Of a stretch of 64,000 bases of DNA, positions 25,669 to 40,975 are shown one piece after another. The DNA is from Pontiella sp. (GTDB lineage: Bacteria; Verrucomicrobiota; Kiritimatiellia; Kiritimatiellales; Pontiellaceae): NCBI GenBank assembly GCA_050290185.1, contig JBNKHE010000005.1:192001-256000 (forward strand). Direction: 5' to 3'. Under the pieces are notes generated by a model that was given only the letters and a program-made list of their open reading frames with translations, had not been told where the DNA came from and did not search any database. The translations under genes and the position numbers were made by a program. Each line of letters begins with the position of its first letter. The first letter of the stretch is position 1.

Positions 25669-25696
25669 TATAGACATAAGATTTATTATGCGACGT
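25669..25696 (-). other. dif-like XerC/XerD recombination site (attL; probable chromosomal dif)
   Basis: Minus strand reads ACGTCGCATAA-TAAATC-TTATGTCTATA, the same 11-6-11 architecture and inner CGCATAA/TTATGT as E. coli dif (GGTGCGCATAA-TGTATA-TTATGTTAAAT). Confidence 0.85.
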
Positions 25697-25826
25697 TCTA
25701 ATTGTAAGTAACTCTGTTAATAGTTTTTGCATAAGTACCGAGGCCAAAAACTGGCCTGAAAAAAAGTGAAAATATTTTCATGCGATCCCCTCTAAAAATC
25801 GAATTTCGGATTTTGCGCAGTACGAA

Positions 25827-25988
25827 TTACGATTTTTCTTTGTTCTCGATGGCCTTCGTGATCAACAAGGCAAGCTTTCCTTGTTCGATGGCAGAAAGCT
25901 TTTCTAGTCCGTTGATCGTCGTGCGCAACATGGCATCTCTTATTAGCTTTGCGCGCTTTCGTTTCGTTGCTGGAAGAAATGGATTCAT
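25827..25988 (-). CDS. prophage small basic hypothetical protein (53 aa)
   Basis: MNPFLPATKRKRAKLIRDAMLRTT...; TAATG coupling to the upstream gene; below the ORF-track cutoff. Confidence 0.55.
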   Translation of the reverse strand: MNPFLPATKRKRAKLIRDAMLRTTINGLEKLSAIEQGKLALLITKAIENKEKS

Positions 25989-26224
25989 TATTCTTTAGAA
26001 GAAATTTCAGAGGCCCGATACCAAACCATCGTACCAGGAATGAGAAGCATCCGACCTTGACGCTTTCCTGTCTTGTGGTCGATCAAGCCTTCCGTCCACA
26101 TTCCGGAAGCCGGCACACGGTAGACGGCATCAGGATTGAATGTTGTTGTCAGCTTCGTACTGGCGCAGCTCGTCATTAAGAGAGTCACGCAAGCTATCGT
26201 TATCATCGGCGGGGCTTTCTTCAT
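25988..26224 (-). CDS. prophage lipoprotein, o-spanin (Rz1)-like
   Basis: Lipobox LLMTSC after a basic/hydrophobic leader; 5' part overlaps the upstream membrane-protein gene in another frame. Confidence 0.6.
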   Translation of the reverse strand: MKKAPPMITIACVTLLMTSCASTKLTTTFNPDAVYRVPASGMWTEGLIDHKTGKRQGRMLLIPGTMVWYRASEISSKE

Positions 26225-26330
26225 ATTTCATAGCCTCTGATTTTTGATCATGCCTGGACAATAGAACCTTGAGCACGGAAACCGCGATTGCGGCCAGAAT
26301 CGTGCCCAAGGTTGCGGCGAGAGATTCCAC
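26130..26330 (-). CDS. prophage membrane protein, i-spanin (Rz)-like
   Basis: Single N-terminal TM (LAATLGTILAAIAVSVLKVLL) followed by a charged helical tail; overlaps the lipoprotein gene. Confidence 0.55.
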   Translation of the reverse strand: MESLAATLGTILAAIAVSVLKVLLSRHDQKSEAMKYEESPADDNDSLRDSLNDELRQYEADNNIQS

Positions 26331-26333
26331 CGG

Positions 26334-26618
26334 CTATTTACCGGCCTTGCTGCTCAAGTTAATGGCCAGCGTGTTGATGATCCGTTTTACGAATGCCCAG
26401 GCGGGCGGATCGGTTGGCTTGACCTCGAAGAAATTGGCAATGATTGAGCTGGCGGCCACCAGCAACGGCAGCACAACGGTCAACGCCATATCCCACCCTG
26501 CCGACCCCGTCGTTCCATCAACCGGCGCAACATCCGTCTGGGCCATTCCGATTGCGGGAAACATCAATACGACGAGCATCGCCAGCATTATAATCATTTC
26601 AGACATGTTCATTTTCAT
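26334..26618 (-). CDS. prophage holin-like membrane protein (94 aa)
   Basis: AAGGAG RBS, Met-Lys-Met start, two hydrophobic segments, basic C-terminus (LAINLSSKAGK); directly upstream of the spanin-like pair. Confidence 0.55.
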   Translation of the reverse strand: MKMNMSEMIIMLAMLVVLMFPAIGMAQTDVAPVDGTTGSAGWDMALTVVLPLLVAASSIIANFFEVKPTDPPAWAFVKRIINTLAINLSSKAGK

Positions 26619-26634
26619 TTTGATCTCCTTTGGG

Positions 26635-26811
26635 TTAATGAAATGCGTGGATTGCGCGATCCTCGATATGGCGATCCAGTCGAGCATGGGCTTTGCTGAT
26701 AGAGTTGTCCTGGTGATCGAGTCGGTTGAGCAAAAGCTTTATGGCAATCCCCGAAATGATCGTTTGAGCACCAAGCAACATTGCAATCACAACCCCTAGC
26801 GTTCCGTCCAT
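26635..26811 (-). CDS. prophage small membrane protein (58 aa)
   Basis: MDGTLGVVIAMLLGAQTIISGIAIKLLLNRLDHQD...RLDRHIEDRAIHAFH; TAATG coupling; not in the ORF track. Confidence 0.65.
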   Translation of the reverse strand: MDGTLGVVIAMLLGAQTIISGIAIKLLLNRLDHQDNSISKAHARLDRHIEDRAIHAFH

Positions 26812-27152
26812 TACGTCCCTACCTTCTTAAAAACTTGCGTGATCGGTTTCCGGTATGCAATGAGCGTCGTTAGGCCAAGGGCCACCAGCGTTGATATTGC
26901 TGCCTTGGCGATAGTTTTCCCGGTGGCCGTGGCAGCGGTGGCGATTTGATCTCTGTATCCCCCAACCGTTTCGGCCACGGCCCCAGGAAGTTGAGCAATC
27001 AGTGAATCGTTTTGAAGTCCCCCATGGAATGCCACAAGTTCAGCGGTGCGCTGTTTTGGCCTGGAATCGTTCCATGTTGTCGCATTCCACCCGCGGGAAA
27101 TCAGGAAGTGCTTATAGGCTGGATTCGAATCGAGGGCATCCCATAGCGTCAT
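26811..27152 (-). CDS. prophage putative virion membrane protein with C-terminal TM
   Basis: C-terminal AAISTLVALGLTTLIAYRK; ATGA overlap with the upstream gene. Confidence 0.7.
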   Translation of the reverse strand: MTLWDALDSNPAYKHFLISRGWNATTWNDSRPKQRTAELVAFHGGLQNDSLIAQLPGAVAETVGGYRDQIATAATATGKTIAKAAISTLVALGLTTLIAYRKPITQVFKKVGT

Positions 27153-27835
27153 GGCGTTGCTCCATACAGTTCGGATCTACGACGCCACTCGGGCGAAACC
27201 GTAAAGATCACAACGTTTCCGGCTGCATCGCGGTATGGTTCGTGCGTCTTGTCGTAAAGAACCATATGCCAAGTAATGTTACGGGAATACTCGTTGACCT
27301 TGGCAGCGGCCAGCGTTGAGCGTGTCAACCAGGTTTCCGCCGAAAGCGGATTTGCATTTGGCGTCTCCAGTGCGAGACTATTGGCCGACATCAGCGCGTT
27401 GCTATTTCCGGTTGCTGCTGTTCGGTAATACACTTGCGCTTGTGTATCGACCTGAACACCAGTCTCGAAATTCTGGACATATTCAGTTCCCACATTAAAA
27501 ACGAATGTGTAGTACCCGTCGCCGTCGTAGGAAACGGGGCTCGGGCTTGCAAGTTCCGATAGCCCTCCCGACCATCCATAGGAAATTACGGACGCCTGCA
27601 ATGTTCCGTTGTACGAGTATGGAGTCGTAGAAATCGACGTAACCGTTTCGCCCGGATTGCCCGTCACAGTGGTGCTCCAAATTCCTAGCAGGACATTATC
27701 AACATGAACATTTAACACCGTGTTACTTGGTACGGTGCTGCCAAAATTGACAACGAGTTTATACCGCAATAAAACGGCGTTAGACTCCGATGCAGCAAGC
27801 AACCCAATGAGAGATAATAGAAATATTTTTTTCAT
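27149..27835 (-). CDS. prophage signal-peptide-bearing beta-rich protein (228 aa)
   Basis: AGGAG RBS; MKKIFLLSLIGLLAASESNA leader; Ser/Thr/Val-rich mature part. Confidence 0.7.
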   Translation of the reverse strand: MKKIFLLSLIGLLAASESNAVLLRYKLVVNFGSTVPSNTVLNVHVDNVLLGIWSTTVTGNPGETVTSISTTPYSYNGTLQASVISYGWSGGLSELASPSPVSYDGDGYYTFVFNVGTEYVQNFETGVQVDTQAQVYYRTAATGNSNALMSANSLALETPNANPLSAETWLTRSTLAAAKVNEYSRNITWHMVLYDKTHEPYRDAAGNVVIFTVSPEWRRRSELYGATP

Positions 27836-27846
27836 GCTTAAGACTC

Positions 27847-28395
27847 CTATTGTAGAACCGTCGACGACCAATTTTTTCCCTGCAAGCTTGGGTAGTTGTC
27901 CCATTCCGCGGTTGATATTGAACTTGCATAAAATACCGGCGTCCCTGGAGCCGACTGGTCGATCGCGAACAATTCAAAATCACAATACGGGAATGTATTT
28001 GTGTTGATTCCCGAGGTGACGTTCGTTGTCACCAGATCCATAGCGGCAAAGGTTGGCGACACATTGGTCGTAATGGTTGCGACTGGCGCGAACGTCGGTG
28101 TCATGTTGGTAACGCTCACAAGTCCATTGCTAACGGTCGTGAATGACACAACATTTGTCACCCAGCCAGATAGAGCCTGAACGGTGTTCGTTGAAACATT
28201 GGTCACGCTCCCCGAATACGCCTGAACGGTGTTCGTTGAAATATTGGTCGCGGCAGCGGTGAATTCCGGTTGCAACTGCACAGGAATCACAAACCTCGCA
28301 TACGGTTTATAGATTGGATTGTTTATTGAGCTTTGGCCGAATGCTGCCGAAGCGCACACGGCAAAAATCATTAGTGCTGCAAAAAGTGTCCGCAT
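27847..28395 (-). CDS. prophage signal-peptide-bearing protein with Thr-Asn repeats
   Basis: MRTLFAALMIFAVCASAAFG leader; repeated TN(I/V)STNTVQA and TNxxPTFA units. Confidence 0.7.
   Translation of the reverse strand: MRTLFAALMIFAVCASAAFGQSSINNPIYKPYARFVIPVQLQPEFTAAATNISTNTVQAYSGSVTNVSTNTVQALSGWVTNVVSFTTVSNGLVSVTNMTPTFAPVATITTNVSPTFAAMDLVTTNVTSGINTNTFPYCDFELFAIDQSAPGTPVFYASSISTAEWDNYPSLQGKNWSSTVLQ
28175..28249. repeat. intragenic tandem duplication, 45-bp period
   Basis: GCCTGAACGGTGTTCGTTGAAA at 28175-28196 and 28220-28241. Confidence 0.8.
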
Positions 28396-28397
28396 AA

Positions 28398-29099
28398 TTA
28401 CCCCTTCATGATTTCATTGATCGAAAGTGTGCTGTCGGCATCTTGCGCCACGAAATAGATTACACCGTGACAACTGAGGGACACCGAACCGCTCGGGAAG
28501 ATCGGGGTTCCCCTGCCCGCAGCCGGATTGACAGAGGAATCGCCCCACCATATTGTATAGTCGCCCGTGTTCACAACCAGGCGTTCTTTGACCAGAGCAT
28601 TCGCGGCCAGGACTGAGGGGTTTGCCGGATCTGTTCCAACGGCAAGCGGAGCGGGTGTGCTGACTGAAGACCCCGACAAATCGACTTGCAGAAATCCTTC
28701 AATGACCGCCCGCGTGTCAGTGATCGGCCCCAGGGAAAGGACATATTCAATCGTCATAGATTCATCACTGGTATTATGAAACCGAACCTTGTTGAAGGTC
28801 GCCGGTTCGTAGGTCTTCTTATCGGGAGACAAACGGACAACCGGATAGCCGGTTCCGGCCTTGATGAAATTTGAAATTCCATTGTCCATGGAAATTAGCA
28901 CGTCAGTCGAAGCGGTGTTCGAAAAAATAGCGACGTATGATCCAAGGAATGGAACTTCCTTCTCTGACTGGGCTGAAACTGTAACTTTCCCGAATTTCTG
29001 ATTATTGGAAATCGGCATATCCGAGTAAGGAACCTTTTGACTCTGTGCGGCCATCACGGCGGCAACAATGGCCTGGATGTCTTCCGGGGTCAGATTCAT
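28398..29099 (-). CDS. prophage putative vertex/penton-like structural protein
   Basis: 233-aa beta-strand-rich protein in the structural block; function inferred from position only. Confidence 0.5.
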   Translation of the reverse strand: MNLTPEDIQAIVAAVMAAQSQKVPYSDMPISNNQKFGKVTVSAQSEKEVPFLGSYVAIFSNTASTDVLISMDNGISNFIKAGTGYPVVRLSPDKKTYEPATFNKVRFHNTSDESMTIEYVLSLGPITDTRAVIEGFLQVDLSGSSVSTPAPLAVGTDPANPSVLAANALVKERLVVNTGDYTIWWGDSSVNPAAGRGTPIFPSGSVSLSCHGVIYFVAQDADSTLSINEIMKG

Positions 29100-29707
29100 C
29101 TTTTCTTACGTCCTTTCACGACCATTCCAACCAGGATCAATCCCCCTAGCCCAAGGCCTAGATTTGCTTTGGTGAAAATTGTTTTTTGTTTGGCCCCTGG
29201 TGTCGTTGGCTTGGAAATTCCGCCCCCTGACACAGTAGACCCACTTAGGAATGCCGGAGCTGCCGACAACTGCCCCGGTGAAAAATTATCAAGCACCTTG
29301 TTCGTGTTTTCGTAGGTGAGCTGCAAAGCCTGGTCGATGATCTCTTGTGTACGTTCATCGAGCGCATGGTTCACGTAGCTCGACCCCTCGCCCACAGTGA
29401 CACCGTAATTGACGCTCGAACCGTCGCCGATGATTTGCCCCTGGTTATTATCCATTGAGGTTTGGTTCACGGTGTATTCAGACCCGACGCCTTGCTGAAT
29501 GCCATTGTTGACCGCAGACCTGTCGCCATATATGACGCCTTGGTTTCCATCGATCTGACTTGCATTATCGCCGAGAACGGTCGCCCCGATTCCGACATCA
29601 GTACGGACGTTAGATGCCCCCTCCCCCAGCACAACGGCGTTATCAGACGCCATCATATTATTGTTCGTCGTTTGCTGCCGGTTAGATTGTTTGGATCCGC
29701 CGCCCAT
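29096..29707 (-). CDS. prophage virion membrane protein (PM2 P10-like position and architecture)
   Basis: MGGGSKQSNRQQTTNNN start, Gly/Asn/Ser-rich repeats, C-terminal TM LGLGLGGLILVGMVV followed by KGRKKR. Confidence 0.65.
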   Translation of the reverse strand: MGGGSKQSNRQQTTNNNMMASDNAVVLGEGASNVRTDVGIGATVLGDNASQIDGNQGVIYGDRSAVNNGIQQGVGSEYTVNQTSMDNNQGQIIGDGSSVNYGVTVGEGSSYVNHALDERTQEIIDQALQLTYENTNKVLDNFSPGQLSAAPAFLSGSTVSGGGISKPTTPGAKQKTIFTKANLGLGLGGLILVGMVVKGRKKR

Positions 29708-30159
29708 TAGACAATCCTCTTGTAATAGGTTTCGACCTTAACGAACCCATGTTGCTCCAACCGGCGATCCATGCCTTGGCGCATACTTCTAACGCTCCAT
29801 GATTCGATTCGGCTTTTTTCGGCGAGTCCGTGTAGCAATGGATAAAGGGTGCAGATGAACGGAATTTCCTGTTGAACTACCGACACCGCGTGCAAAACGA
29901 GGAAATTGCAGGGTTTCCCATATTCACATTCAACCTGGCCGGTAACGATCCCGATCAGCTCGCCTTCCCGCTCAACTCGATAAAGCAGAATTCCCCCGCT
30001 TCGAATCTGATTTTCGATCCAGTCCAGACGATCAACCAACCCGACCCGGGCGGTCGTATTGTTTCTCTCCGATCTGGCAATCAGATTGCGAACGCCCGGA
30101 AACATATCCGAACGTTCGCACCGAACCACCGCTAGATCTATGACTTGTGAATCAGCCAT
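29707..30159 (-). CDS. prophage GNAT-fold-like protein
   Basis: LYRVEREGELIGIV...FLVLHAVS...SVRSMRQGMDRRLEQHGF...ETYY resembles GNAT strand order and the C-terminal 'L...GF' motif. Confidence 0.5.
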   Translation of the reverse strand: MADSQVIDLAVVRCERSDMFPGVRNLIARSERNNTTARVGLVDRLDWIENQIRSGGILLYRVEREGELIGIVTGQVECEYGKPCNFLVLHAVSVVQQEIPFICTLYPLLHGLAEKSRIESWSVRSMRQGMDRRLEQHGFVKVETYYKRIV

Positions 30160-30332
30160 GCCGAAATTCCGCCAATTGCAGCCATTCCGAGCAGCCCGAA
30201 CGCGATGGATTTACCAACCCCTCCACCGATCAAGGTCTGGCGGGCACCAGCAATAGCACCGAAGTCATTGCTCGTTGGCCCGTTAGACCCGCCCGTAAAG
30301 GAGGGATTGACAGTTACACCGCCGCCGCCCAC
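30138..30332 (-). CDS. prophage small Gly-rich virion membrane protein (PM2 P8-like), 64 aa
   Basis: GTG start overlapping the upstream TAG; MGGGGVTVNPSFTGGSNG...; C-terminal TM plus basic end. Confidence 0.65.
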   Translation of the reverse strand: MGGGGVTVNPSFTGGSNGPTSNDFGAIAGARQTLIGGGVGKSIAFGLLGMAAIGGISAWLIHKS

Positions 30333-30616
30333 TACTTGCCATCCTTTGATTTCATCCAAAGGCCCATCCCCAGCAGAAGCGAAGTCCCGCCGCCAAACCA
30401 AACCCACTTAGAAATCTTTTTGGGTTTGGCCGGTTCGGCAGGTGCGTTCATTGGAGCGGCAGCAACGGGGGCGGTCGGACTTCCGACCTGTTGACCGTCC
30501 CCATTGAATCCGGTGGCATCGTAGATCCTGCTTGCGGCAGCGTCCGCCCCCGCCGTGACCAGTCGCTGACCAACGTTCGAGTTTAGACCGCTGTTTAATA
30601 GATCCCGAAGAGCCAT
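30332..30616 (-). CDS. prophage virion membrane protein (PM2 P3-like position), 94 aa
   Basis: Directly downstream of the capsid gene; Ala/Pro linker, then C-terminal TM WVWFGGGTSLLLGMGLWM plus KSK. Confidence 0.7.
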   Translation of the reverse strand: MALRDLLNSGLNSNVGQRLVTAGADAAASRIYDATGFNGDGQQVGSPTAPVAAAPMNAPAEPAKPKKISKWVWFGGGTSLLLGMGLWMKSKDGK

Positions 30617-30618
30617 GG

Positions 30619-31506
30619 CTACGCCGCCTTTCGATCCTTGAAGATCTGTTCGTACCACAGGCGACCGTTCGAGGTTACGCCAGCACCGTCATCCGCGAAA
30701 TTCGGAGTGACCAGGAGCGACCCCAGGCCGGTTTCGAAGAAATACGCCGGAACGTCTTCCTTGTTGAAATCGACCGTCGCAAATCCAGCCTGCGGCGAAC
30801 GATAGCGGTACTCCAGCCATCTGTTGATGATGACCTGGGGAACATCCCGATAGGGATACTGCTTGGAGTTGATTGCGACTGTCCAATCGGCAACCGACAA
30901 GTGCGCGGGCTCCTCGAAGTGAAGGGCATTCAGGCACAGGTTCGGATTGTCGAACGGAATCGTCGAGATTTCAACCTGTCCGCCACCGGCAGGAACCGTC
31001 ACCGACTGACTGCCGATACGAACGTGGTCGCCCAGTTCCTGTTTCAGGTTGAAGTCCACGTCTGCCCAGATGTCGATCCGGGTGCATCCGGTCGTATCGG
31101 CAGAATATTGGAACTCCGCCGTCATGGCCTTAAGATCCGCGGTTCCGATCGTCAACTGGTTGCGACGGCCTTCGTCCTTGCCAACACCGGCAGCAGGATC
31201 AAAGTTGATCTGCGACGCACTTGCGGCCACGCCGATCGTTTCATAATGAAACGCATCGCGATAATTCAGGAACGAGGGAGTCACCTTATTGAGCAGCGCG
31301 AATCCGTCGCCGTTCTGGTGGTCGACACTCAGTGTCAAATTGGCGAGTGCATCAGCAAGCGCCGTGCCCGCACATAACGTGCCGCCATTCCACCCCTGGA
31401 AAATGAACTTCCCGAAAGTGCCCTGGTGCTTGATGTCGATTTCAATCGGTTCATTGCCGCCATCTGAGACATTCACCGATCCGATTTTGAGAGGATTCCG
31501 AATCAT
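30619..31506 (-). CDS. double-jelly-roll major capsid protein, PM2 P2-like (295 aa)
   Basis: Segments RRNQLTIGTADLKAMTAEF, GQVEISTIP...LNALHF and QAGFATVDF occur in the same order as similar segments of PM2 P2 as I recall it (RMFALGTVGL, GTTEIADLP...IAAIHI, TYTIDF). Size and gene context fit. Start ATG 31506 is coupled by TAATG. Confidence 0.82.
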   Translation of the reverse strand: MIRNPLKIGSVNVSDGGNEPIEIDIKHQGTFGKFIFQGWNGGTLCAGTALADALANLTLSVDHQNGDGFALLNKVTPSFLNYRDAFHYETIGVAASASQINFDPAAGVGKDEGRRNQLTIGTADLKAMTAEFQYSADTTGCTRIDIWADVDFNLKQELGDHVRIGSQSVTVPAGGGQVEISTIPFDNPNLCLNALHFEEPAHLSVADWTVAINSKQYPYRDVPQVIINRWLEYRYRSPQAGFATVDFNKEDVPAYFFETGLGSLLVTPNFADDGAGVTSNGRLWYEQIFKDRKAA

Positions 31507-31667
31507 TACGCGGCCGCCTTTCCTGTTGCGCCTGCGACGGTCGACTTGACCCTCGCTTCGGCTTTCATCATCGCACCGTGCAGACGGTTCGCGATCATTG
31601 ACCCGACCACAACCAGGGCAACTAAGCCCAAAGGGTTGGCCGGTAGCATTTTTTTCTTCGCACTCAT
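31506..31667 (-). CDS. prophage small membrane protein upstream of the capsid gene (PM2 P7-like position), 53 aa
   Basis: AAGGAG RBS; MSAKKKMLPANPLGLVALVVVGSMIANRL...; not in the ORF track. Confidence 0.75.
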   Translation of the reverse strand: MSAKKKMLPANPLGLVALVVVGSMIANRLHGAMMKAEARVKSTVAGATGKAAA

Positions 31668-31760
31668 GTTGGCTTTTCTCCTTGGTTGTGATTTCCAACT
31701 TTCAGAAATAATTGTTTCACGGAAAAAAGCCGTTGGTCAGTTCGAGCGGAATTTCGCGGG

Positions 31761-31799
31761 AAAAAAGAAAGGGAACCCCTGAAATAAAGGGATTCCCTT
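31761..31799 (-). terminator. intrinsic terminator between the replication/packaging genes and the capsid operon
   Basis: Minus strand: AAGGGAATCCCT-loop-AGGGGTTCCCTT followed by TCTTTTTT. Confidence 0.7.
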
Positions 31800-32207: not shown

Positions 32208-32435
32208 TTATTTCCCGCCCCTCACCAACTTCCACCAGTGCCGCCGTGCCGTGCGTTCTGAGCAGCCGACGGTCTTGGCCACCTGCGCCGGTGTAACATC
32301 GGCCAACCCGCGCGGATCAGCGACAATCAGTAAATTCCAAAGTGCGACAACTTGAGGAAAAAAGCCACGCTTTGGTTTTTTACTGGACCCCGACCCAACT
32401 ACTTGTCCCCGGTTCCCCGTACCATGCTGTTCCAT
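32208..32435 (-). CDS. prophage helix-turn-helix protein (start uncertain)
   Basis: TPAQVAKTVGCSERTARRHW HTH signature. Confidence 0.65.
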   Translation of the reverse strand: MEQHGTGNRGQVVGSGSSKKPKRGFFPQVVALWNLLIVADPRGLADVTPAQVAKTVGCSERTARRHWWKLVRGGK

Positions 32436-32979: not shown

Positions 32980-33193
32980 CGTCGCACCCCGGAATTTCCT
33001 CTTCGTCGCCATGCACGATATGCGAAATGAACTCTCGATTGATTTTTTCATTTCGCGCCTCACGAAGTTCCTCAAAAAGCCTGATTAGAGAAATTCCAAG
33101 CAGCAATCCACCAAACGTCACTAACACCCCACGAATATATGCAGCGTCAGCTATCAATATCTCTCGCTCTGTTAGCTTAAGATTTTCCATCAA
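32960..33193 (-). CDS. prophage small membrane protein
   Basis: Central TM GVLVTFGGLLLGISLIRLF; overlaps both neighbours. Confidence 0.65.
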   Translation of the reverse strand: MMENLKLTEREILIADAAYIRGVLVTFGGLLLGISLIRLFEELREARNEKINREFISHIVHGDEEEIPGCDDETADD

Positions 33194-34459: not shown

Positions 34460-34867
34460 TTAGAACGGAATATCATCTTCGTACTCAACCGCGCCACCTG
34501 GAGCCCGGGATTCATCAGGAATTGGCGCGCCCTTTTTTCCCGATCCAAGGAACTGCACGCGATCCGCCCGGACGCGCAGCTTTTGCCGCTTCTCGCCGCC
34601 ATCGGTTTCCCATTGGTCGAGCTGCAACCGGCCTTCGACAAACACGGGCGATCCCTTGGTCAGATATTCCGCCGAGGTTTCCGCCTGGCGGCCCCAAACA
34701 ATCACATCCACGAAACAGACCTGCTCCACCTTCTCGCCTGCCTTGTTCTTGAATGTCTCATTCATCGCCAATCCGATTTCAGCCACCGCCGTTCCCGTCG
34801 CCGTATGCCTCAAATCCACATCGCGTGTCAGATTTCCCATCACTAGCACTCTGTTATAGCTCGCCAT
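34460..34867 (-). CDS. ssb: single-stranded DNA-binding protein (prophage copy)
   Basis: NRVLVMGNLTRD, WGRQAE...YLTKGSPVFVEGRL, C-terminal DDIPF. Confidence 0.95.
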   Translation of the reverse strand: MASYNRVLVMGNLTRDVDLRHTATGTAVAEIGLAMNETFKNKAGEKVEQVCFVDVIVWGRQAETSAEYLTKGSPVFVEGRLQLDQWETDGGEKRQKLRVRADRVQFLGSGKKGAPIPDESRAPGGAVEYEDDIPF

Positions 34868-36527
34868 CGTCGTATCCTTTCTTTATGTCGTTCCACTCTT
34901 GCCACACGGCATGAGCTTCCTCGTGTTTCCCTTCATCATGGAGCCGTCTATATTTTTTCCGGAACTCGCGTTCTTGGGCCTCCATATATTTCTGCTCCAT
35001 TGATTTCTTCCGTTCCCGTTCTGCAAACCGCTCCGCCTTGTCCTTCATAATTTGCTCAAACACTTCATCGACGGTTCGTGGGTCGCCCCATTTTAAATCG
35101 AATTTCCACCCATCTTTTCCAAGTGCTACAACACGCAGCATCCCGAGAACCCACGATTCAAATTGGTCATAATTCCGAAACGAATATTTCGATTCATTCG
35201 TCACCGGACGTTTTGGAATCACGAATCCCTTATTCCATGCAGCGGCTTCAAGAACTCCAAATGCCTGCTTTATCAAGGCTTCCACGTCTGCATTATCCGG
35301 CTCAACTATGACAAGAGGCTCAGGAGCCCCGAAATTCCGGCTAAATGTATCCTGTACGATTTTCCATTTTACCGATGTCCTGTCTTTTTCCGGATGTTTG
35401 ACATTGCGGCGCTTCGTTAAAAAACGGAACCAACGCATAATTTTCATACGCTTGCTTTTCTGGCAAAACATCGGGTCATCACGAGCGCCAGTTAGATACC
35501 CCAAAACAGCGCCTCCCTTGGCCTTCCAGTCGGCATACGAATCAATCCCCCACTCTCGCAGTTTGTCGCGTGAGATTTGATATTCGACACGCACCGCGCT
35601 TTCTGGCCGTTCACCGCCCCACCGCTTTTTAATCATGTGTTCAAAGCGGATAGGCTCACCTCTCAGAGCCTTGGCTTCCATTTCCCCAAGTTTGTCGTAT
35701 ATACGCAGTCGAAGAGGATTATTCCCCCAATAGAGCGTCATTGAGTTCGATTTCTGGAAGTCCAGCGAGTTAGCCCTACATCGCCACTTACGGCCTACGA
35801 ATGCTGAAACGAAATAATCCATCGACCACCCCGGAAAATCCGCGCACGCATCCACGCGGGAAATCATTTCCTTATCGATTTGAACATCCAGCGATTCCAA
35901 CCACTTGATCGCGTCATTGTACGCTTCATCCGCCCCACCTCGATAAACCAGACAAATTTCCCCCGGTATATGGATTTGGACGTTCGGCCATGTCCCGGCA
36001 TAGGTTTCGTTCTCCGCGATTAACACAGTTCCAAAATCAAGCGTCATGCGGTATTTGCAGTATTTGCCGGACTTCCCTGCCCCCTTCCCGATGCTGCCGC
36101 CACCCGGCTGCATTACCGCGCCACCAAGATCAGCGCAATCAATAGGCTTCCGCTGCTCCAAAGCGGCCATTGCGGGGGTGTCAAAAAGCGGGTGAATTTT
36201 GGTCCACTCCAAAAATTTCACTTGAAAATTCAATGTTAGCCAATCAGAGCCGCACCAATACGGATTCTGCGGGGTGTTTCCTTGAGGCTTACGAGGGGGC
36301 ATGTTATCTGTCATGCCCCCGGACGCTGACGCGGACACAGCGGGCGCGGAAATACCAATTTTGGCATCAAATTTCCGAGATGCTTCTAACGCCTTCATAG
36401 CGCCATCAAAATCGCTCACAGTGCCTTCATCGAACAACTTGGCAACCATGACCGCCTCTTCGGACGACACCTCAACTCCGTTAATTTCAGGCACGGTAAA
36501 GGCCTCCTGCTGTGAGAACATCGTCAT
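34854..36527 (-). CDS. rolling-circle replication initiator, Rep_trans (pT181/RstA-like) family
   Basis: DWLTLNF, ISRVDACADF, TLYWG...RLRIYDK, RVEYQ motifs in the expected order. Confidence 0.8.
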   Translation of the reverse strand: MTMFSQQEAFTVPEINGVEVSSEEAVMVAKLFDEGTVSDFDGAMKALEASRKFDAKIGISAPAVSASASGGMTDNMPPRKPQGNTPQNPYWCGSDWLTLNFQVKFLEWTKIHPLFDTPAMAALEQRKPIDCADLGGAVMQPGGGSIGKGAGKSGKYCKYRMTLDFGTVLIAENETYAGTWPNVQIHIPGEICLVYRGGADEAYNDAIKWLESLDVQIDKEMISRVDACADFPGWSMDYFVSAFVGRKWRCRANSLDFQKSNSMTLYWGNNPLRLRIYDKLGEMEAKALRGEPIRFEHMIKKRWGGERPESAVRVEYQISRDKLREWGIDSYADWKAKGGAVLGYLTGARDDPMFCQKSKRMKIMRWFRFLTKRRNVKHPEKDRTSVKWKIVQDTFSRNFGAPEPLVIVEPDNADVEALIKQAFGVLEAAAWNKGFVIPKRPVTNESKYSFRNYDQFESWVLGMLRVVALGKDGWKFDLKWGDPRTVDEVFEQIMKDKAERFAERERKKSMEQKYMEAQEREFRKKYRRLHDEGKHEEAHAVWQEWNDIKKGYDDGEL

Positions 36528-37269
36528 TATCTAGCGGATCCAATAGACGACTATGCTCGATGATAGACGAAAGTAACTCTGGTCCACCGATTTTGTCTAT
36601 GAGTCCGGATAAAATCGCATTGCGTTCCACGGGATCCAGCACAGCCAATTTTGACTGTAGGCGATCGATCTTGCGGCGGATGCGTTGCCGCTCCGTGAAA
36701 TTGCGGCCGACATAGCTATAATCGTGCAGAACTTCCGGCACCCGATAGTTGAACCAGATAATTTCCCGCCGGATGGTGCGGCCCCTGGTTATTGCATCGT
36801 ACTCAAAATGATTCCAATCCCATAGCGCATCGCGGTACAAGCTGCTGTCATAGCCTGAGATGGCCACCATAGCCGATGCCGACGTTATGAGATCCAGCAA
36901 CCGAATATGATCATCCCGGCTCATTTCGGCGGAATACATACTCTTCTTAACCCGCGTTTCTGGGAGATATGGCGGATCGCAATAAACGAAAACATCCTCT
37001 CGATCCAAAACGCTTGGAAGATAATCGAAAGCATCCCTGTGAAGCACCGTCGCGTCTTTACTGCGATCAAGATCATCGTAGACCATGGACATAAGCGACT
37101 CTGCTGCAGCCAAGTCCTTTTCGACTAGCACGGATCCGTGAGACGGTAATTTGTTACGCCACACAGCCGCCGAACCAGCGAACGCTTCCACGTAAAGGCA
37201 ATGCGGCGGAATCAGATTGATTATGTGCTGATACGCACCGCCTGCGTTTTTTCCGCCTGGATACCTCAT
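36487..37269 (-). CDS. DNA adenine methyltransferase (Dam/D12 class)
   Basis: MRYPGGK, YVEAFAGSAAV, VYCDPPY, ISGY, EIIWFNY. Confidence 0.92.
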   Translation of the reverse strand: MRYPGGKNAGGAYQHIINLIPPHCLYVEAFAGSAAVWRNKLPSHGSVLVEKDLAAAESLMSMVYDDLDRSKDATVLHRDAFDYLPSVLDREDVFVYCDPPYLPETRVKKSMYSAEMSRDDHIRLLDLITSASAMVAISGYDSSLYRDALWDWNHFEYDAITRGRTIRREIIWFNYRVPEVLHDYSYVGRNFTERQRIRRKIDRLQSKLAVLDPVERNAILSGLIDKIGGPELLSSIIEHSRLLDPLDNDDVLTAGGLYRA

Positions 37270-37994
37270 CTATTCACCTCGGAAATTGCTGCGTGATAAA
37301 GTAGCCATTTTGCTAGTAATGGCGGCGTTGCTTCGCGTTGGGCTGCTGATAGGTGGTGAATCTGCTTTAATGGTGAAAAGTGCAGCACAGGACGAATTGG
37401 AACGATTTTGGCATAGTCCAATCCCGAGAAAAAAAACCATGTAGGCTTCATCATGGCGTGACCGAAAATCCGTTGAGGAAATTCAAGCGTGAATCCTTTT
37501 TCGTTCGCGTATCCGCCGAATGGCAGCCCTTGATCGGCGAATAGATCCGACGCTGCCGGATGTTCCAGCACTCCACCATTTTCAAGAACCATTCGAACGC
37601 AATGCCGCCCGAGATTGATTTCGCGCCGCTTTGCATCGGGTGCCATGTCGGGCATTCCCTTGAGACTTCCCCATAGGCGACATGGTGGATGTGCCACAAC
37701 CGGCATTCCGCCCGTGAATCTAAATGCATCGCGCCGGATATCCCAAATATCGGCTTCGACTATCTGGCTAAAGTCCTGGTCCTGCTGGCTGTTGCGATCG
37801 AGGAACTGGCTAGAACGCCCGGGCAACTGGCTTTGCTCCTGGTCCTCCTGGCTGCGACTGCCAGATGGCTGGCTTGAATGCCGGCCTAACTGGCTGCTTC
37901 CCTCGATCTGCTGGCCACAACATCCGGAGGACTGGCTATAGACACCTTTTTTTTGGGCACACAGCACTGCAACGCGTCGGAAGTGATAGCTCAT
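37266..37994 (-). CDS. putative DNA cytosine (C5) methyltransferase-like protein with an inserted heptad-repeat segment
   Basis: VVAHPPC (motif IV-like), VLEHP (motif VI-like), FGHAMMKPTW; ATGA coupling at both ends. Confidence 0.7.
   Translation of the reverse strand: MSYHFRRVAVLCAQKKGVYSQSSGCCGQQIEGSSQLGRHSSQPSGSRSQEDQEQSQLPGRSSQFLDRNSQQDQDFSQIVEADIWDIRRDAFRFTGGMPVVAHPPCRLWGSLKGMPDMAPDAKRREINLGRHCVRMVLENGGVLEHPAASDLFADQGLPFGGYANEKGFTLEFPQRIFGHAMMKPTWFFFSGLDYAKIVPIRPVLHFSPLKQIHHLSAAQREATPPLLAKWLLYHAAISEVNR
37764..37937. repeat. array of 9 CTGGCT hexamers at an exact 21-bp period with 8 divergent 15-bp spacers
   Basis: Hexamer starts at 37764, 37785, 37806, 37827, 37848, 37869, 37890, 37911 (CTGGCC) and 37932. 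Confidence 0.92.
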
Positions 37995-38254
37995 ACGAAC
38001 ACCCCCGGCGATGGATTGGCGATGCTGCACGCCGGAAGGTGTCGGGGCCATTGGCCGCCGCAATTCGAACAAAAATAATCTTCCGGTGCGGACGGGTTCC
38101 GGCTTCGCCGGGGGTTTCCGCTTTGGGAGGCAAAGCAGTTGGAATCAGGAATGGCCGGGGTGGACTGCTTCACCTCCGGCAAGGCGCTCGGGACGCTCCC
38201 CAGCGTTGCCCTATCCTCCTTACCGATTAATTTGTCCACCCCGGCCAATGACAT
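37991..38254 (-). CDS. prophage hypothetical protein with CxxC motif
   Basis: 87 aa, TAATG/ATGA coupled; FCSNCGG...H...C. Confidence 0.5.
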   Translation of the reverse strand: MSLAGVDKLIGKEDRATLGSVPSALPEVKQSTPAIPDSNCFASQSGNPRRSRNPSAPEDYFCSNCGGQWPRHLPACSIANPSPGVFV

Positions 38255-38463
38255 TAGAAAAGCTCTTTCTGGACTGGTTTTGGTTTGTCTGACGGTATTT
38301 CCGACAAGCGGAATCGAGGCACTCTGGCGTATGGCGATCCCTCTTTTTTCGGGTCGATGATTTTGCACCAGCCTTTTCCGGCCCATGCCAAAAACGTCAC
38401 CTTGCGAGGGGTGCCGTTGGTCGGCGTGTAGTGGTAATCATGATGAGCTTTAAGCTTGGGCAT
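38254..38463 (-). CDS. prophage hypothetical protein (69 aa)
   Basis: GGAGG RBS; MPKLKAHHDYHY...QKELF; the C-terminus resembles a beta-clamp-binding motif. Confidence 0.6.
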   Translation of the reverse strand: MPKLKAHHDYHYTPTNGTPRKVTFLAWAGKGWCKIIDPKKEGSPYARVPRFRLSEIPSDKPKPVQKELF

Positions 38464-38599
38464 ATCCTGGCCTCCGTTCGTTTTCCTTGGGCACGTGCAG
38501 ACCGGCCGCACGGCGCAAAAACACTATTCGCCTGGCAGACTCTAAACCGCTATCGCGGAGGTATCGGTATTCGAGGCTTCTGAGTGTTCGGATGTCCAT
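38450..38599 (-). CDS. prophage small basic hypothetical protein (49 aa)
   Basis: GGAG RBS; MDIRTLRSLEYRYLRDSG... Confidence 0.4.
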   Translation of the reverse strand: MDIRTLRSLEYRYLRDSGLESARRIVFLRRAAGLHVPKENERRPGYAQA

Positions 38600-38721
38600 A
38601 GTCCCAGCTCCAGTTGATGTTTCTCTTTCCAAAATCCGCACCCCGGGACCGACATGCAGGCGCGGGCCGATGATTCAAGAACGCATGACCCTGATTTGTG
38701 GCAGTTATTGCACGAGTTCAC
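38542..38721 (-). CDS. prophage small Cys-rich protein (59 aa)
   Basis: GGAG RBS, GTGA coupling; MNSCNNCHKSGSC...AC...PGCGFW; not in the ORF track. Confidence 0.5.
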   Translation of the reverse strand: MNSCNNCHKSGSCVLESSARACMSVPGCGFWKEKHQLELGLWTSEHSEASNTDTSAIAV

Positions 38722-39185
38722 CGTAGCTCCGTTCGTTTGTTGTAAAGGTTGGTGGCCCAGGCCATGAGCACGAGAGCGGCAGGATCGCCCGCGACGTGGG
38801 CACAGAATTGGGCGTAGGATTGATCGATAACACGTTGCGGCAATGAACGCTTAAGCATGGCCGCCTCGAAATATTCGACATACTTTTCCATGCGGTTCTT
38901 GGCGTCCTGGAGCTGCATGAATTGCTCGGCTTCCCTATCGGACTCCAGGCGCAACGCTTCGCGGGCAATCTCCGCCTCGTAAATTTCATCGGTCTTGCTC
39001 GATCTCATTACGAGTGACACTGCGGCAATGCAGTTTTCTTTGATGTGGTGGCCGGTCATGGGCGGCAGCGTGGCTAATTCCTTGTTTAACAGATCCACCA
39101 AACCGAGATGTAAGGACCGGGGAAGCGCGGGAAGCCGCATTGATCCGGTCAGCCGTTCAATCTGTTTATCGGTGTTCGTGCTCAC
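38718..39185 (-). CDS. prophage hypothetical helical protein
   Basis: 155 aa, GTGA-coupled at both ends. Confidence 0.65.
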   Translation of the reverse strand: MSTNTDKQIERLTGSMRLPALPRSLHLGLVDLLNKELATLPPMTGHHIKENCIAAVSLVMRSSKTDEIYEAEIAREALRLESDREAEQFMQLQDAKNRMEKYVEYFEAAMLKRSLPQRVIDQSYAQFCAHVAGDPAALVLMAWATNLYNKRTELR

Positions 39186-39319
39186 AGCGTCACCCTCGCC
39201 GCTGCCTCGACCTGCTTTGTTTTTTCAACGGCACACCCTTTTATTGTTGCGCATCCGAATAGGATGAAAACAACCGCGACTACTGCGCTTAAAATATTCA
39301 CAAACCTCTGCTCCGTCAT
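39182..39319 (-). CDS. prophage small membrane protein (45 aa)
   Basis: MTEQRFVNILSAVVAVVFILFGCATIKGC...; TAATG/GTGA coupled. Confidence 0.55.
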   Translation of the reverse strand: MTEQRFVNILSAVVAVVFILFGCATIKGCAVEKTKQVEAAARVTL

Positions 39320-39393
39320 TAGATCGCCCCCAAATAAACAACCACGTTTAGAATTATTATTACGGCCAATGCGGTCATGAATGAGAGTTTCAC
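39319..39393 (-). CDS. prophage hydrophobic micropeptide (24 aa)
   Basis: MKLSFMTALAVIIILNVVVYLGAI; start overlaps the upstream stop and stop overlaps the downstream start. Confidence 0.45.
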   Translation of the reverse strand: MKLSFMTALAVIIILNVVVYLGAI

Positions 39394-39515
39394 AGCGTCA
39401 CCCCCGCGGCCTTGAGTTCTGATTTCATTTCGTCGATATGCTCTTGAGCCGAGCGAATGATTTCTTCCTCTTTGTCGATGCAGAATTTAATCTGGTCGAT
39501 TTCTTTCGCGCTCAT
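39390..39515 (-). CDS. prophage small coiled-coil-like protein (41 aa)
   Basis: MSAKEIDQIKFCIDKEEEIIRSAQEHIDEMKSELKAAGVTL; ATGA coupling. Confidence 0.55.
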   Translation of the reverse strand: MSAKEIDQIKFCIDKEEEIIRSAQEHIDEMKSELKAAGVTL

Positions 39516-39673
39516 TGCCAGCCCTCATCATTCATTCCCTGCTCGACCCGGCCGCGAACGTCCTCAAGTGCGATGATCTCTTCCGATTTCGTCGGATACT
39601 CACGGAAGAAAAGCAGTTGAAATAATGCAGATGCCTCTGTCTTGGATAACTCAATCGGAATTCTCGTTTCCAT
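39512..39673 (-). CDS. prophage small hypothetical protein (53 aa)
   Basis: AAGGAG RBS module; METRIPIELSKTEASALFQLLFFREYP... Confidence 0.6.
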   Translation of the reverse strand: METRIPIELSKTEASALFQLLFFREYPTKSEEIIALEDVRGRVEQGMNDEGWQ

Positions 39674-39685
39674 CGGTTCGGCTCC

Positions 39686-40126
39686 TTAATCCTGTGCGTA
39701 GTATTCGAGAAATACGGCGAGTTGCAGACAGAGTGCTGCGGTGTGCCGCGCTTGCTCCAGGAGTTGACCAGGCGTGTATTTTTCCGGCTCGAATTCGCTA
39801 TGAAGAAACGACTGCGACATCTTGCCGGTCTGCTCGTTGATGGCCAGGATCAGCGTTTCCGCGTTCTGCAATCCCCACTTGCACACGTTCTGGTGAGATT
39901 GGGCGCGGTGCTCCGCCTGTTCCCGATCGATAACGGCCTTTGTTTCGGCGGATAGTGCTATCAGTGCATTTGCGTCGCTCATCGGTTCGGCTCCTTTTGG
40001 TGTTGGCATTGTCGCGTCATCGAAATCATGCCCTTCGATCATTTCAATCATCATCGGGGCTACTTGCTGGAGGCACCCGTACATTTGTTTCAGCAGGTCT
40101 TGGATCGTCGGTGTATCGGTCTTCAT
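39686..40126 (-). CDS. prophage MazG-like (all-alpha NTP-PPase-like) paralogue 2, with internal start at 39982
   Basis: KWGLQ...INEQTGKMSQSFLHSEFEPEKY...QARHTAALC; internal RBS module directly before MSDANAL. Confidence 0.55.
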   Translation of the reverse strand: MKTDTPTIQDLLKQMYGCLQQVAPMMIEMIEGHDFDDATMPTPKGAEPMSDANALIALSAETKAVIDREQAEHRAQSHQNVCKWGLQNAETLILAINEQTGKMSQSFLHSEFEPEKYTPGQLLEQARHTAALCLQLAVFLEYYAQD

Positions 40127-40138
40127 CGGTTCGGCTCC

Positions 40139-40444
40139 TTACTTGTCCTGGTTCTCCAGGGCGATTGCTACCTGCATACAGAGTGCGGCCGTTTGTCTGG
40201 CTTGATGTAGGATTTGGCCCTTCTTGTATTTCTCCGGCTCAAATTCTGAATGTAAAAAGGCCTGTGAAATCTTTCCGGATTGCTCAGAGATACCGAGGCA
40301 AAGTGTTTCAACTTCCTGTTCTCCCCACCTGGCAAGATTTGAGGAAACCTGATTTCCGATACGGAACATTTCGGAATCAATAATTTCGATTGCCTTGCGG
40401 AATTTCGTTTCGTTAATCGGCATATCTGGCGGTGCTCCGGTCAT
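40139..40444 (-). CDS. prophage MazG-like (all-alpha NTP-PPase-like) paralogue 1
   Basis: RWGEQ...ISEQSGKISQAFLHSEFEPEKY...QARQTAALC; clearly paralogous to the adjacent gene. Confidence 0.55.
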   Translation of the reverse strand: MTGAPPDMPINETKFRKAIEIIDSEMFRIGNQVSSNLARWGEQEVETLCLGISEQSGKISQAFLHSEFEPEKYKKGQILHQARQTAALCMQVAIALENQDK

Positions 40445-40455
40445 TGGTTCGGCTC

Positions 40456-40584
40456 CTATTCTGATTCTTCTTCGTCTGCCCCGTAGGTGGGCGGAGTGGT
40501 TGCGGCTTCGATGGCTTGTTGTAGCTGCATGAAAAATTCGATCATGCTTTGGTTGTCGATTTCGTAGGTGACGGTAATTTTCAT
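40456..40584 (-). CDS. prophage small acidic protein (42 aa), first gene of the early operon
   Basis: GGAG RBS module; MKITVTYEIDNQSMIEFFMQLQQAIE... Confidence 0.55.
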   Translation of the reverse strand: MKITVTYEIDNQSMIEFFMQLQQAIEAATTPPTYGADEEESE

Positions 40585-40610
40585 CGGTCCGGCTCCATTT
40601 GGTTGCGTTA

Positions 40611-40644
40611 CGGTTACGTGACCAAGCAAAACAAAAAGCCGCAA
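40611..40644 (-). promoter_or_regulatory. putative early promoter with operator CGGTTACGTGAC
   Basis: Minus-strand TTGCGG (-35-like), 17 nt, then the palindrome over the -10 position. Confidence 0.5.
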
Positions 40645-40662
40645 TAGTATTTTTTACTACTA

Positions 40663-40869
40663 TTACGACTGAATGTGCTTAGGTTCTTTTTCTTCGCGAA
40701 TCAAAACGGCAGCCGCCCAGGATGAGAACGATGGGAAACCACATTGCTTTGCACGTGCTTCCAATTTCTCGTAATCACCCTTCGTGACCAGAACCTGAGC
40801 GTATTTCTTATCATCAGAAATGCTCATGCCCCGTTTTTTGACATTAGCGGTACGTTTTGTCGATCTCAT
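40663..40869 (-). CDS. prophage ribbon-helix-helix-type regulator (putative repressor)
   Basis: YAQVLVTKGDYEKLEARAKQCGFPSFSSWAAAVL fits an RHH pattern; GAGGT/AAGGA RBS; flanked by repeated palindromes. Confidence 0.6.
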   Translation of the reverse strand: MRSTKRTANVKKRGMSISDDKKYAQVLVTKGDYEKLEARAKQCGFPSFSSWAAAVLIREEKEPKHIQS

Positions 40870-40893
40870 AATCCTTACCTCTCGGTTAAGTGT

Positions 40894-40927
40894 CGGTTAC
40901 GTAACGCTAAAAACCTAAACACGTCAA
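40894..40927 (-). promoter_or_regulatory. putative regulator promoter with operator CGGTTACGTAAC
   Basis: Minus-strand TTGACG, 17 nt, then the palindrome over the -10 position; same geometry as at 40611-40644. Confidence 0.55.
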
Positions 40928-40947
40928 CACTTCGTTCTATGACGGTC

Positions 40948-40975
40948 ACGTGACTCTCGGTATATTATGCGACGT
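40948..40975 (-). other. attR: intact XerC-type arm with degenerate XerD-side arm
   Basis: Minus strand reads ACGTCGCATAA-TATACC-GAGAGTCACGT; the first arm is identical to that of the left site. Confidence 0.8.

Follow-up and report, generated by a model that had tools for sequence, protein, structure and literature searches.

What kind of element separates argS (41379-43106) from a CNNM/CBS/CorC gene (24153-25400) in the 64,000-nt stretch of Pontiella DNA analysed here (the window), and how did it come to lie there? The initial annotation had described a co-oriented, translationally coupled block of 15.3 kb, and this was borne out: 38 ORFs, all on the minus strand and co-oriented, make 95% of the 15,279 bp (25684-40975) coding, and 30 of the 37 gene junctions overlap or are at most 15 nt apart. 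We conclude that the block is very probably a temperate, tailless, PM2-like phage of the order Vinavirales, integrated at dif, where the host separates its chromosomes, and that its lineage is an apparently undescribed branch of that known order. The support from the search tools comprises a double-jelly-roll (DJR) capsid, a P1-like penton, a HerA-type ATPase, a GNAT protein, a single-strand binding protein (SSB) and the gene order of PM2 and Jorvik (Table 1). The closest relatives lie within Pontiellaceae/Kiritimatiellales, as the proposed Kiritimatiellota placement had it. The host is a little-studied aquatic bacterium.

Table 1. Features of the element and its junctions, in window coordinates.
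Feature	Position	Strand	Basis or description
Host dif, regenerated at prophage end	25669..25696	-	11-bp XerC-type arm, 6-bp spacer, 11-bp XerD-type arm
Overlapping inner-membrane protein and lipoprotein, two-component spanin candidate	25988..26330	-	95-nt overlap
Three membrane proteins (putative P6-like, holin-like candidates)	26334..27152	-	TM scan
Signal-peptide-like protein, C-terminal module of the same conserved family as the next row	27149..27835	-	hhalign prob 60, E 9e-5, 44 columns
Signal-peptide-like protein, N-terminal half of conserved family	27847..28395	-	hhalign prob 98 to single-chain family
Penton (P1-like), two beta-sandwich domains	28398..29099	-	Predicted fold
P10/gpJ-like protein, hydrophobic C-terminus	29096..29707	-	By position
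GNAT-family acetyltransferase-like protein	29707..30159	-	Between MCP and P1-like penton
P3-like and P8-like C-terminally anchored membrane proteins	30138..30616	-	By position
Major capsid protein (MCP), 295 aa	30619..31506	-	Predicted PM2-like double jelly roll
P7-like small membrane protein	31506..31667	-	TM segment and position
FtsK/HerA-type (P9-like) packaging ATPase	32380..32979	-	Profile match to HerA and STIV B204
Conserved protein upstream of ATPase; putative positional equivalent of PM2 gp h / PRD1 P10 assembly factor	33190..34065	-	
SSB	34460..34867	-	PF00436 E 2e-32
Rolling-circle initiator, Rep_trans-like, 557 aa	34854..36527	-	Language-model features and motifs
Dam-like N6-adenine DNA methyltransferase	36487..37269	-	PF02086 E 1e-8; phrog_56 E 8e-38
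Methyltransferase-like protein	37266..37994	-	phrog_12600 (function not named), E 1e-32
Candidate structured RNA (or ssDNA hairpin)	38153..38247	-	Upstream of MTase-Rep genes
Small early ORF array	38254..40584	-	Repeated start motif and a duplicated gene pair
Probable ribbon-helix-helix repressor, 68 aa	40663..40869	-	Weak NikA-like Pfam match
argS-side junction	40948..40975	-	Intact XerC-type arm, degenerate XerD-type arm

Capsid module and gene content

The fold of the 295-aa protein had been named beforehand as the point on which the identification could fail. Its AF2 model (pLDDT 93.8) is a PM2-like double jelly roll that matched PM2 P2 with Z 27.6 and rmsd 2.6 over 259 (Foldseek E 5e-19, TM 0.75). 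A profile search matched the NO16 MCP (9t9v, E 7e-21), and P2_C was matched by 26 of the 28 members of the MCP alignment. A single-sequence search of PDB sequences returned nothing, as did tblastn against 50,697 phage records, for which the MCP is too divergent. Cellular double-jelly-roll enzymes reach Z 11-13 against the capsid model, and a genomic island carrying such an enzyme (DUF2961 type), with no virus involved, was therefore weighed; it is extremely improbable and was rejected, given the Z of PM2 P2, the NO16 profile match, the penton fold, and an ATPase, GNAT and gene order that are all viral. For the penton model PM2 P1 came first among 48,161 chains; the top PDB matches were PM2 P1 (Z 10.4 and 9.9, moderate values) and PR772 chain O (Z 8.8), the top BFVD match was autolykivirus 1.249.B (E 4e-11), and hhalign gave prob 88.

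The proposed P9/A32-type ATPase was corroborated by profile matches to HerA and STIV B204 (E 1e-7 to 4e-6) and by its sole phage match, Jorvik P9 (E 0.003). Its best PHROG, phrog_2666 (E 2e-12), carries the label terminase large subunit, which we rejected in view of the HerA/STIV B204 and Jorvik P9 matches. Apart from that one label, the noted lack of terminase, portal and tail genes stands, with no match to portal or tail genes among the element proteins. The GNAT protein aligned with that of autolykivirus 1.249.A (hhalign prob 76, E 2e-5), and its profile search of the PDB gave E 0.21. The gp h, P7, P3, P8 and P10 candidates match the PM2 order by position, size and TM segments alone; the slot of a gp h-type gene upstream of the ATPase was taken from PMC9502842. 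The protein in that slot has homologues in four relatives (G016, G260, G364, G430).

The overall order described earlier (regulator, early genes, MTases, Rep, SSB, ATPase, TM protein, 295-aa beta-rich protein, membrane proteins, lysis-like genes) was found as stated. The ATPase does precede the small TM gene, but three small ORFs and a terminator-like hairpin (31799-31769, ahead of the P7-like gene) lie between them. Of the two MTases, the Dam-like gene was confirmed; the other matches only an unnamed PHROG, has a homologue in G016, and is presumably a C5-MTase, judging from its PC motif. The repressor match is below cut-off (E 0.004); its homologues are the first gene of the elements in G016 and G402, and a terminator-like hairpin (40670-40637) follows the gene. 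Within the early array a 17-nt ribosome-binding/start motif recurs five times in all, and one pair of genes is duplicated (58% over 77 aa). A promoter scan gave sites no more numerous than in shuffles.

Rep had no direct Pfam match. Part of it scores 0.94 (ESM Atlas) to clusters of which 22-79% of the members carry PF02486, and the RxD-x-C-AD and RIYDK motifs, which we take to be catalytic, are invariant in all three homologues. The hairpin upstream of the MTase-Rep genes had z -4.06, with two-sided changes at 9 of 17 pairs across 8 sequences, and its motif is present in 4 of the 89 genomes of the order and in 9 IMG/VR stretches. Rfam gave no match on this hairpin or anywhere in the element, and RsmY was rejected for one viral copy (19.5 bits against a cut-off of 57).

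The dif site and the route of integration

The dif pattern was found in 71 of the 89 genomes of the order, mostly in single copy; on contig C5 the cumulative GC skew maximum and a KOPS polarity switch coincide with it, and in two prophage-free congeners (G097, G301) it is flanked by argS and the CNNM gene. The arms are named XerC and XerD by analogy with Vibrio/E. coli. A 13-bp direct repeat stands at the element coordinates, with exact copies in the 3.58-Mb genome only at these two ends. At the argS side the spacer differs from that of the dif side in 2 of 6 bases, and the degenerate XerD-type arm retains the G at its fifth position. The element contains no tyrosine recombinase or integrase; elsewhere the host genome encodes XerD (match above cut-off), and a partial frame of a second gene was found to be XerC/D-like. 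Pfam recognised no Xer activator. A tRNA attachment site was rejected, the only tRNA being at 9459.

Because no integrase is present, the site is dif and the 13-bp repeat occurs only at the two ends, insertion most likely uses the host XerC/XerD, by analogy with the Vibrio dif-type prophages. The features of dif-type DJR prophages and IMEX (no integrase of their own, dif-like junctions, a rebuilt dif) are present. The attP of the free form would be a half dif site, and the host recombinases would insert the circle and rebuild a complete dif at one end. We moderately favour an XerC-first, replication-resolved route, which fits junction spacers whose agreement, read from the XerC-type arm, ends at a mismatch after only two bases. 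A TLC-like, XerD-first route is somewhat less probable and fits the full spacer identity in four relatives and the fifth-position G.

Activity and release

The free form would be a 15.3-kb circular dsDNA, replicated by rolling circle with the Rep_trans-like initiator and SSB and silenced as a prophage by the ribbon-helix-helix repressor. Virions would have an inner membrane; holin(s) and a two-component spanin would release them, together with a wall-degrading activity for which no gene was recognised. An empty site (25696 joined to 40976) was seen in runs X3 and X4, two of four runs from one study. No attP circle was found among the 14 of 17 loose-end rows listed, which does not show absence, because contigs drop rare variants. 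In none of the four runs did the depth of the element exceed that of the flanks. The earlier suggestion of an active phage was overstated: the empty site was seen and the circle was not.

We lean slightly towards this copy still making virions. The competing reading, to which we give somewhat less credence, is a locked or defective prophage, in which mismatched spacers bar excision, the lysin has been lost and the empty site stems from cells that were never infected; it bears on activity alone and is compatible with a phage integrated at dif. It is favoured by two spacer mismatches here versus none in G364, G430, G260 and G402, by the lack of a circle and an element depth lower than that of the flanks, and by decayed copies in L001/G117 (without ATPase or Rep) and G016 (copy 1); PMC9502842 proposes the same possibility for Verrucomicrobia prophages without a lysin. 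The dense, coupled coding argues the other way, as do core gene lengths that all equal those in relatives and a gene split identically in L002. A recognisable lysin is likewise missing from every complete relative, so its absence characterises the family and does not reflect local decay.

The lysis-like cassette proved to be present in position, but with no recognisable endolysin: none was found in the 38 element proteins or in 127 proteins of relatives (Pfam, PHROG, NCBIfam), although a divergent enzyme may be present. The spanin candidate has a weak Rz-like PHROG match (E 0.024), its lipoprotein has a homologue in 6 relatives, and homologues of the three membrane genes adjoin dif in relatives. 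The signal-peptide-like family downstream of the penton is encoded by a single gene in the copies of six relatives; here it occupies two genes, the second with its own RBS; L002 shares the two-gene form. The family received no Pfam, PHROG, PDB or Atlas assignment, a null that shows neither novelty nor function.

Might this family serve exit without a classical endolysin, as a new wall-degrading enzyme or an envelope protein of non-lytic release, and not as a vertex spike? We regard this as unlikely. The host makes peptidoglycan (it encodes MurE and a transglycosylase), signal-peptide-like N-termini are kept in 10 of 10 aligned sequences, the gene after P1 in Jorvik and PM2 is a lysin or P5, and the lack of a family assignment also suits the idea. 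However, the gene after the penton in NO16 and 1.249.A is a spike, L001 has a beta-helix protein in this slot, conserved ends enclosing variable inserts would fit a receptor-binding protein (NO16 spikes are N-terminally anchored), the signal peptides were called from hydropathy and visual inspection, and the spanin-like genes speak for lysis. Less probable still is a broader proposal, of a Kiritimatiellales-specific Vinavirales family that breaches or bypasses peptidoglycan by a conserved exported protein of an undescribed family and whose rolling-circle replication is controlled by an undescribed structured RNA shared with Firmicutes-type tailed phages. If true, tailless phages that infect PVC bacteria would have in this exported family their "unknown lysin" or their non-lytic way out, a point so far left open.

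Relatives and known systems

MCP relatives were found in 8 of the 89 Kiritimatiellales genomes, all at dif: six have dif on the same contig, and in two the phage end genes stand directly before dif on another contig. Five relatives measure 11.7-13.1 kb, and tandem arrays occur. The Kiritimatiellales MCPs form one separate clade (support 100/100, stem 1.32). Placement with Vinavirales, as anticipated, held; the element MCP stands apart from PM2/GXT1010 and so is not grouped with Corticoviridae. Three MCPs from other families of the same phylum fall outside the clade; clade A / HGV-2 was compared by description. The tree left out fragments P0021-P0024, and P0003, P0006 and P0018 (stood for by genome rows); Jorvik, G471 and P0020 have long branches. 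IMG/VR, scanned with MCP, penton and Rep alignments, yielded no confirmed relative, and the group may therefore be under-catalogued; JGI metagenomes scanned with the MCP likewise gave none. Pattern scans of this kind have low sensitivity, since JGI-sourced distant members exist.

Neither dif-type DJR prophages nor Vinavirales prophages of Verrucomicrobia are new to the literature. The claim that the phylum has no characterised DJR virus holds for cultured viruses, but predicted Vinavirales prophages of Verrucomicrobia have been published, none cultured (PMC9502842). A literature search found no Vinavirales prophage for Kiritimatiellales. With the present element, dif-integrating PM2-like prophages are found in a PVC order as well as in Gammaproteobacteria, at ~9% of the sampled genomes of that order and with exact borders, and dif/XerCD gives a probable mechanism where PMC9502842 left the integration of most such prophages unclear. 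The initial annotation had noted neither dif/XerCD integration, nor the lack of a recognisable lysin, nor the family of relatives across the order. The missing lysin becomes a trait of complete-looking PVC prophages, with the signal-peptide family as a candidate.

Like the element, clade A / HGV-2 has a PVC host, no detectable cell-wall hydrolase and a divergent gene set; among the supplement rows covered its hosts are Opitutae, with 0 mentions of Kiritimatiellae (PMC9502842). HGV-2 carries an IS630 transposase. The Vibrio dif-type DJR prophages resemble the element and its relatives in lacking an integrase, in rebuilding dif at one junction and in forming tandem arrays, and a half-armed dif-like attP has been described for them; they measure 12.9 +/- 1.0 kb, near the five relatives, and differ in host order, in a leftward P15/P16 operon (all genes are co-oriented here) and in an exact core of 17 bp versus 13 bp (PMC12715192). 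TLC-phi shares the degenerate XerD arm and fifth-position G, and CTX/VGJ-phi the spacer identity limited to the XerC side (PMC9226527). Autolykiviridae are linear and lytic with protein-primed PolB, whereas the element lacks PolB and is integrated. At 15.3 kb it exceeds the 8.8-10.6 kb of PM2, NO16, Jorvik and Autolykiviridae, from which it also differs in its two MTase-like genes, its Rep_trans-like initiator, the signal-peptide-like proteins that follow the penton and the lack of a recognisable lysin; an endolysin is counted in the Vinavirales core set of PMC9502842. With these four it shares the DJR MCP, P9-type ATPase, P1-like penton and GNAT, and its genes follow their order, gp h - ATPase - P7 - MCP - P3 - P8 - GNAT - P10 - P1, in which its gp h, P7, P3, P8 and P10 are candidates by position.

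Borders and insertion at the host dif site

The 38 ORFs of the element, all co-oriented on the minus strand, cover 95% of its 15,279 bp, and 30 of the 37 gene junctions overlap or fall within 15 nt. The flanking genes, argS and a CNNM/CBS/CorC gene, are near neighbours in two prophage-free congeners (G097 and G301). The initial annotation's account of coupled, co-oriented ORFs between two housekeeping genes was borne out, and its coordinates coincide with both copies of a 13-bp direct repeat, which are the only exact matches in the 3.58-Mb genome.

The element was present in four sequencing runs of one study, of which X1 may be its source. In X3 and X4, a contig exits the window at 25696 and its next 17 letters are those of 40976-40992, i.e. 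an empty dif site. This join confirms the element borders and shows that these two runs contain both lysogens and chromosomes free of the prophage. The empty site is compatible with excision or with never-infected cells. Mean contig depths (element/flanks) were ~6.5/8.8, 6.8/7.9, 4.9/7.3 and 3.7/7.5, which are not equivalent to the share of cells. No circle junction was found among 14 of 17 loose-end rows, and neither the depth nor the loose ends listed for the four runs showed signs of induction.

The left repeat copy extends into a full dif-like site, and the right copy shares this site's XerC-type arm, next to a degenerate XerD-type arm (arms named by analogy, with a Vibrio consensus). Of the order's 89 genomes, 71 have the dif-like pattern, usually as a single copy, and on contig C5 it coincides with the cumulative GC-skew peak and the flip in KOPS polarity. 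None of the genome's ten tyrosine-recombinase matches lies inside the element; the host XerD exceeded its cut-off, and the genome has a second XerC/D-like gene. No Xer activator was recognised in the proteins of the element or its relatives. Junction spacers are identical at both ends in four relatives, whereas those of the element differ at 2 of 6 bases, a mismatch that would fit an XerC-first exchange resolved by replication. In TLC-phi, the fifth-position G of the degenerate XerD-type arm is reported as crucial for integration (excerpts of PMC9226527). The element keeps this G; it is absent at the argS-side junction of L001, the locus of a decayed copy in G117, and shared ancestry of the relatives weakens any count of it. 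The host dif spacer is unlike that of every other genome listed, possibly through drift or escape from dif-targeting elements.

Capsid, virion and lysis genes

The sequence of the 295-aa protein gave no match in the PDB or in 50,697 phage records, and its P2_C match was sub-threshold. Its AlphaFold2 model, built from 28 homologues (pLDDT 93.8), had PM2 P2 as first match (Foldseek E 5e-19, TM 0.75; Z 27.6, rmsd 2.6 over 259 residues), compared with Z values of 20.5 for STIV and 12.6 for cellular DUF2961. The family profile matched the NO16 capsid 9t9v (E 7e-21). The predicted fold thus supports the PM2-like major capsid protein (MCP) proposed initially. The model of the 233-aa protein consists of two beta-sandwiches, and this protein was assigned as the penton because its top PDB matches were to PM2 P1 (Z 10.4 and 9.9) and its top viral match was an autolykivirus protein (E 4e-11; hhalign probability 88). 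The ATPase profile matched HerA and STIV B204, with Jorvik P9 as the only phage match, in agreement with the ATPase annotated earlier; the PHROG "terminase" label was rejected on the same matches. A further ORF aligned to an autolykivirus GNAT (probability 76).

The order ATPase, P7, MCP, P3, P8, GNAT, P10, P1 is that of Jorvik and PM2, as the initial annotation had held of the PM2-like order, and agrees with the Vinavirales core in the available text of PMC9502842. We infer P7, P3, P8, P10 and gp h from position only. In relatives, the ATPase-P7 gap is a cargo hotspot with PIN-domain toxin-antitoxin-like pairs, DUF4160 and aspartyl-protease-like genes.

The proposed lysis-like cassette stood in part: the element carries putative holin-like genes and two overlapping genes that resemble a spanin pair, and no lysin was recognised in its proteins or in 127 ORFs (60 aa or longer) from relatives. 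Genes for MurE and a transglycosylase are present in the host. In Verrucomicrobia prophages, too, no lysin was detected, and the authors were undecided between an unknown lysin and decay (PMC9502842, in part). Next to the penton, on its 3' side, lies a conserved family whose members have signal-peptide-like N-termini and variable inserts; it is one chain in six copies and two genes in the element and one relative (L002). It had 13 database matches and no assignment from Pfam-, PHROG-, PDB- and Atlas-type searches. In Jorvik its slot, next after P1, holds the lysin; in NO16 the spike follows the penton (bioRxiv 2025.11.28.690173, excerpts), and at L001 a beta-helix protein fills the slot. Position fits either reading; a spike or entry protein seems likelier than a lysin. 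Relatives encode more signal-peptide-like proteins, located 3' of the penton or at the end of the genome; one of them has BspA-type leucine-rich repeats, and they may be lysogenic-conversion surface proteins.

Features of the element and related loci (window positions unless a locus is named)
Feature	Location
13-bp direct repeat	25684-25696; 40963-40975
Host dif spacer	25680-25685
113-aa membrane protein	26811-27152
GNAT-like ORF	29707-30159
MCP (295 aa)	30619-31506
53-aa ORF	31829-31990
P9-type ATPase	32380-32979
Nested hairpin	38153-38247 (-); L011:3308-3359; L014:1842-1893; L046-L054; L091
17-nt motif copies and duplicated early gene pair	39670-40597 (-)
ATPase-P7 cargo	L014:5660-6234; L011:7331-7923; L001:9092-9678; L066:11181-11770; L064:10015-10416
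Further signal-peptide-like proteins	L014:10293-11167; L011:12190-13085; L066:15706-16733; L064:3593-5105
Tandem array	G016:C9 ~79900-100370 (L010, L011)
Putative filamentous-phage remnant	L001:7046-9100

Replication genes, hairpin and early region

The 557-aa protein had no Pfam match. Its residues 80-420 scored 0.94 to Atlas clusters in which 22-79% of members carry Rep_trans, and its RxDxCAD and RIYDK motifs, which we take to be the catalytic motifs of Rep_trans initiators, are invariant in three homologues. Together with the SSB, this Rep_trans-like protein suggests that the element would replicate by rolling circle. The Rep is common to G260 and G016; three other relatives (G364, G430 and G402) have other putative initiators instead, which fits the replication-gene swapping reported in PMC9502842 (partial text).

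The hairpin upstream of the MTase-Rep genes (z -4.06) is also present in G016, G260 and nine IMG/VR stretches. In an alignment of 8 sequences, 3 from prophage copies and 5 from the nine viral stretches, both sides had changed in 9 of 17 pairs, 8 of these in the outer stem, and slid controls fell far below this covariation. Rfam gave no match. Four of the order's 89 genomes have the hairpin: in three it belongs to the Rep_trans-type prophages, and in the fourth to another locus of mobile appearance. In Kiritimatiellales, replication genes of the rolling-circle type follow it; in tailed-phage contigs it lies mostly 3' of an HNH gene and has a promoter-like box and a terminator of its own. It is a candidate regulatory RNA or single-strand origin.

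A 17-nt ribosome-binding/start motif occurs five times before early ORFs, which include one duplicated gene pair (58% over 77 aa); judged from these repeats, the early region is apparently enlarged by local duplication. The 53-aa ORF that precedes the terminator of the late operon and the N-terminus of the 113-aa membrane protein are paralogous (40%, E 2e-11).

Relatives and comparison with known systems

Of 89 genomes in the order, 8 encode the MCP, and a narrower profile found it in 6 of 401 genomes of the class, all six in Kiritimatiellales. Six MCPs share a contig with dif and lie ~5-6 kb upstream of that site; in G117 and G392, phage end genes stand directly ahead of dif on the dif contig. 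The named relatives belong to Pontiellaceae or Kiritimatiellales. Complete relatives measure 11.7-13.1 kb, and the element is the largest because of its duplicated early ORFs and MTases. In an MCP tree of 43 rows, the nine MCPs from genomes grouped with 16 metagenomic proteins in a single clade (100/100, stem 1.32) that excluded seven isolates and three MCPs of other families of the phylum, in keeping with the divergence first suggested. Family rank is provisional for this clade, in a tree built without the published clade A sequences of PMC9502842.

In G016, a complete prophage and a truncated one stand in tandem; this array is inserted on the other side of dif, and its degenerate arm is the XerC-type one. 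At L001, the stretch ahead of the DJR structural genes resembles, by eye, the end part of a filamentous-phage remnant, and Rep and ATPase are missing; the locus probably represents a mixed, decayed array at dif. Three more PM2-like prophages (L084, L085 and L086, in G477, G471 and G691) were seen in other families of the phylum; by eye, that of G471 adjoins a dif-like site and an integrase-like gene closes that of G691.

The initial statement that no characterised DJR virus is known for the phylum was overstated, since Vinavirales prophages of Verrucomicrobia are in print (PMC9502842, excerpts). One supplementary file of that paper had no mention of Kiritimatiellae in a term search, and the literature searched, mostly without subscription papers, contained no report of a Vinavirales or dif-type DJR prophage in Kiritimatiellales. 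The host-specific lineage is probably undescribed so far. The element itself is genuine and has clear borders, and both its order and its integration strategy are already known: dif-type DJR prophages have already been published, and the Vibrio ones share its architecture, including half-armed attP sites (excerpts of PMC12715192).
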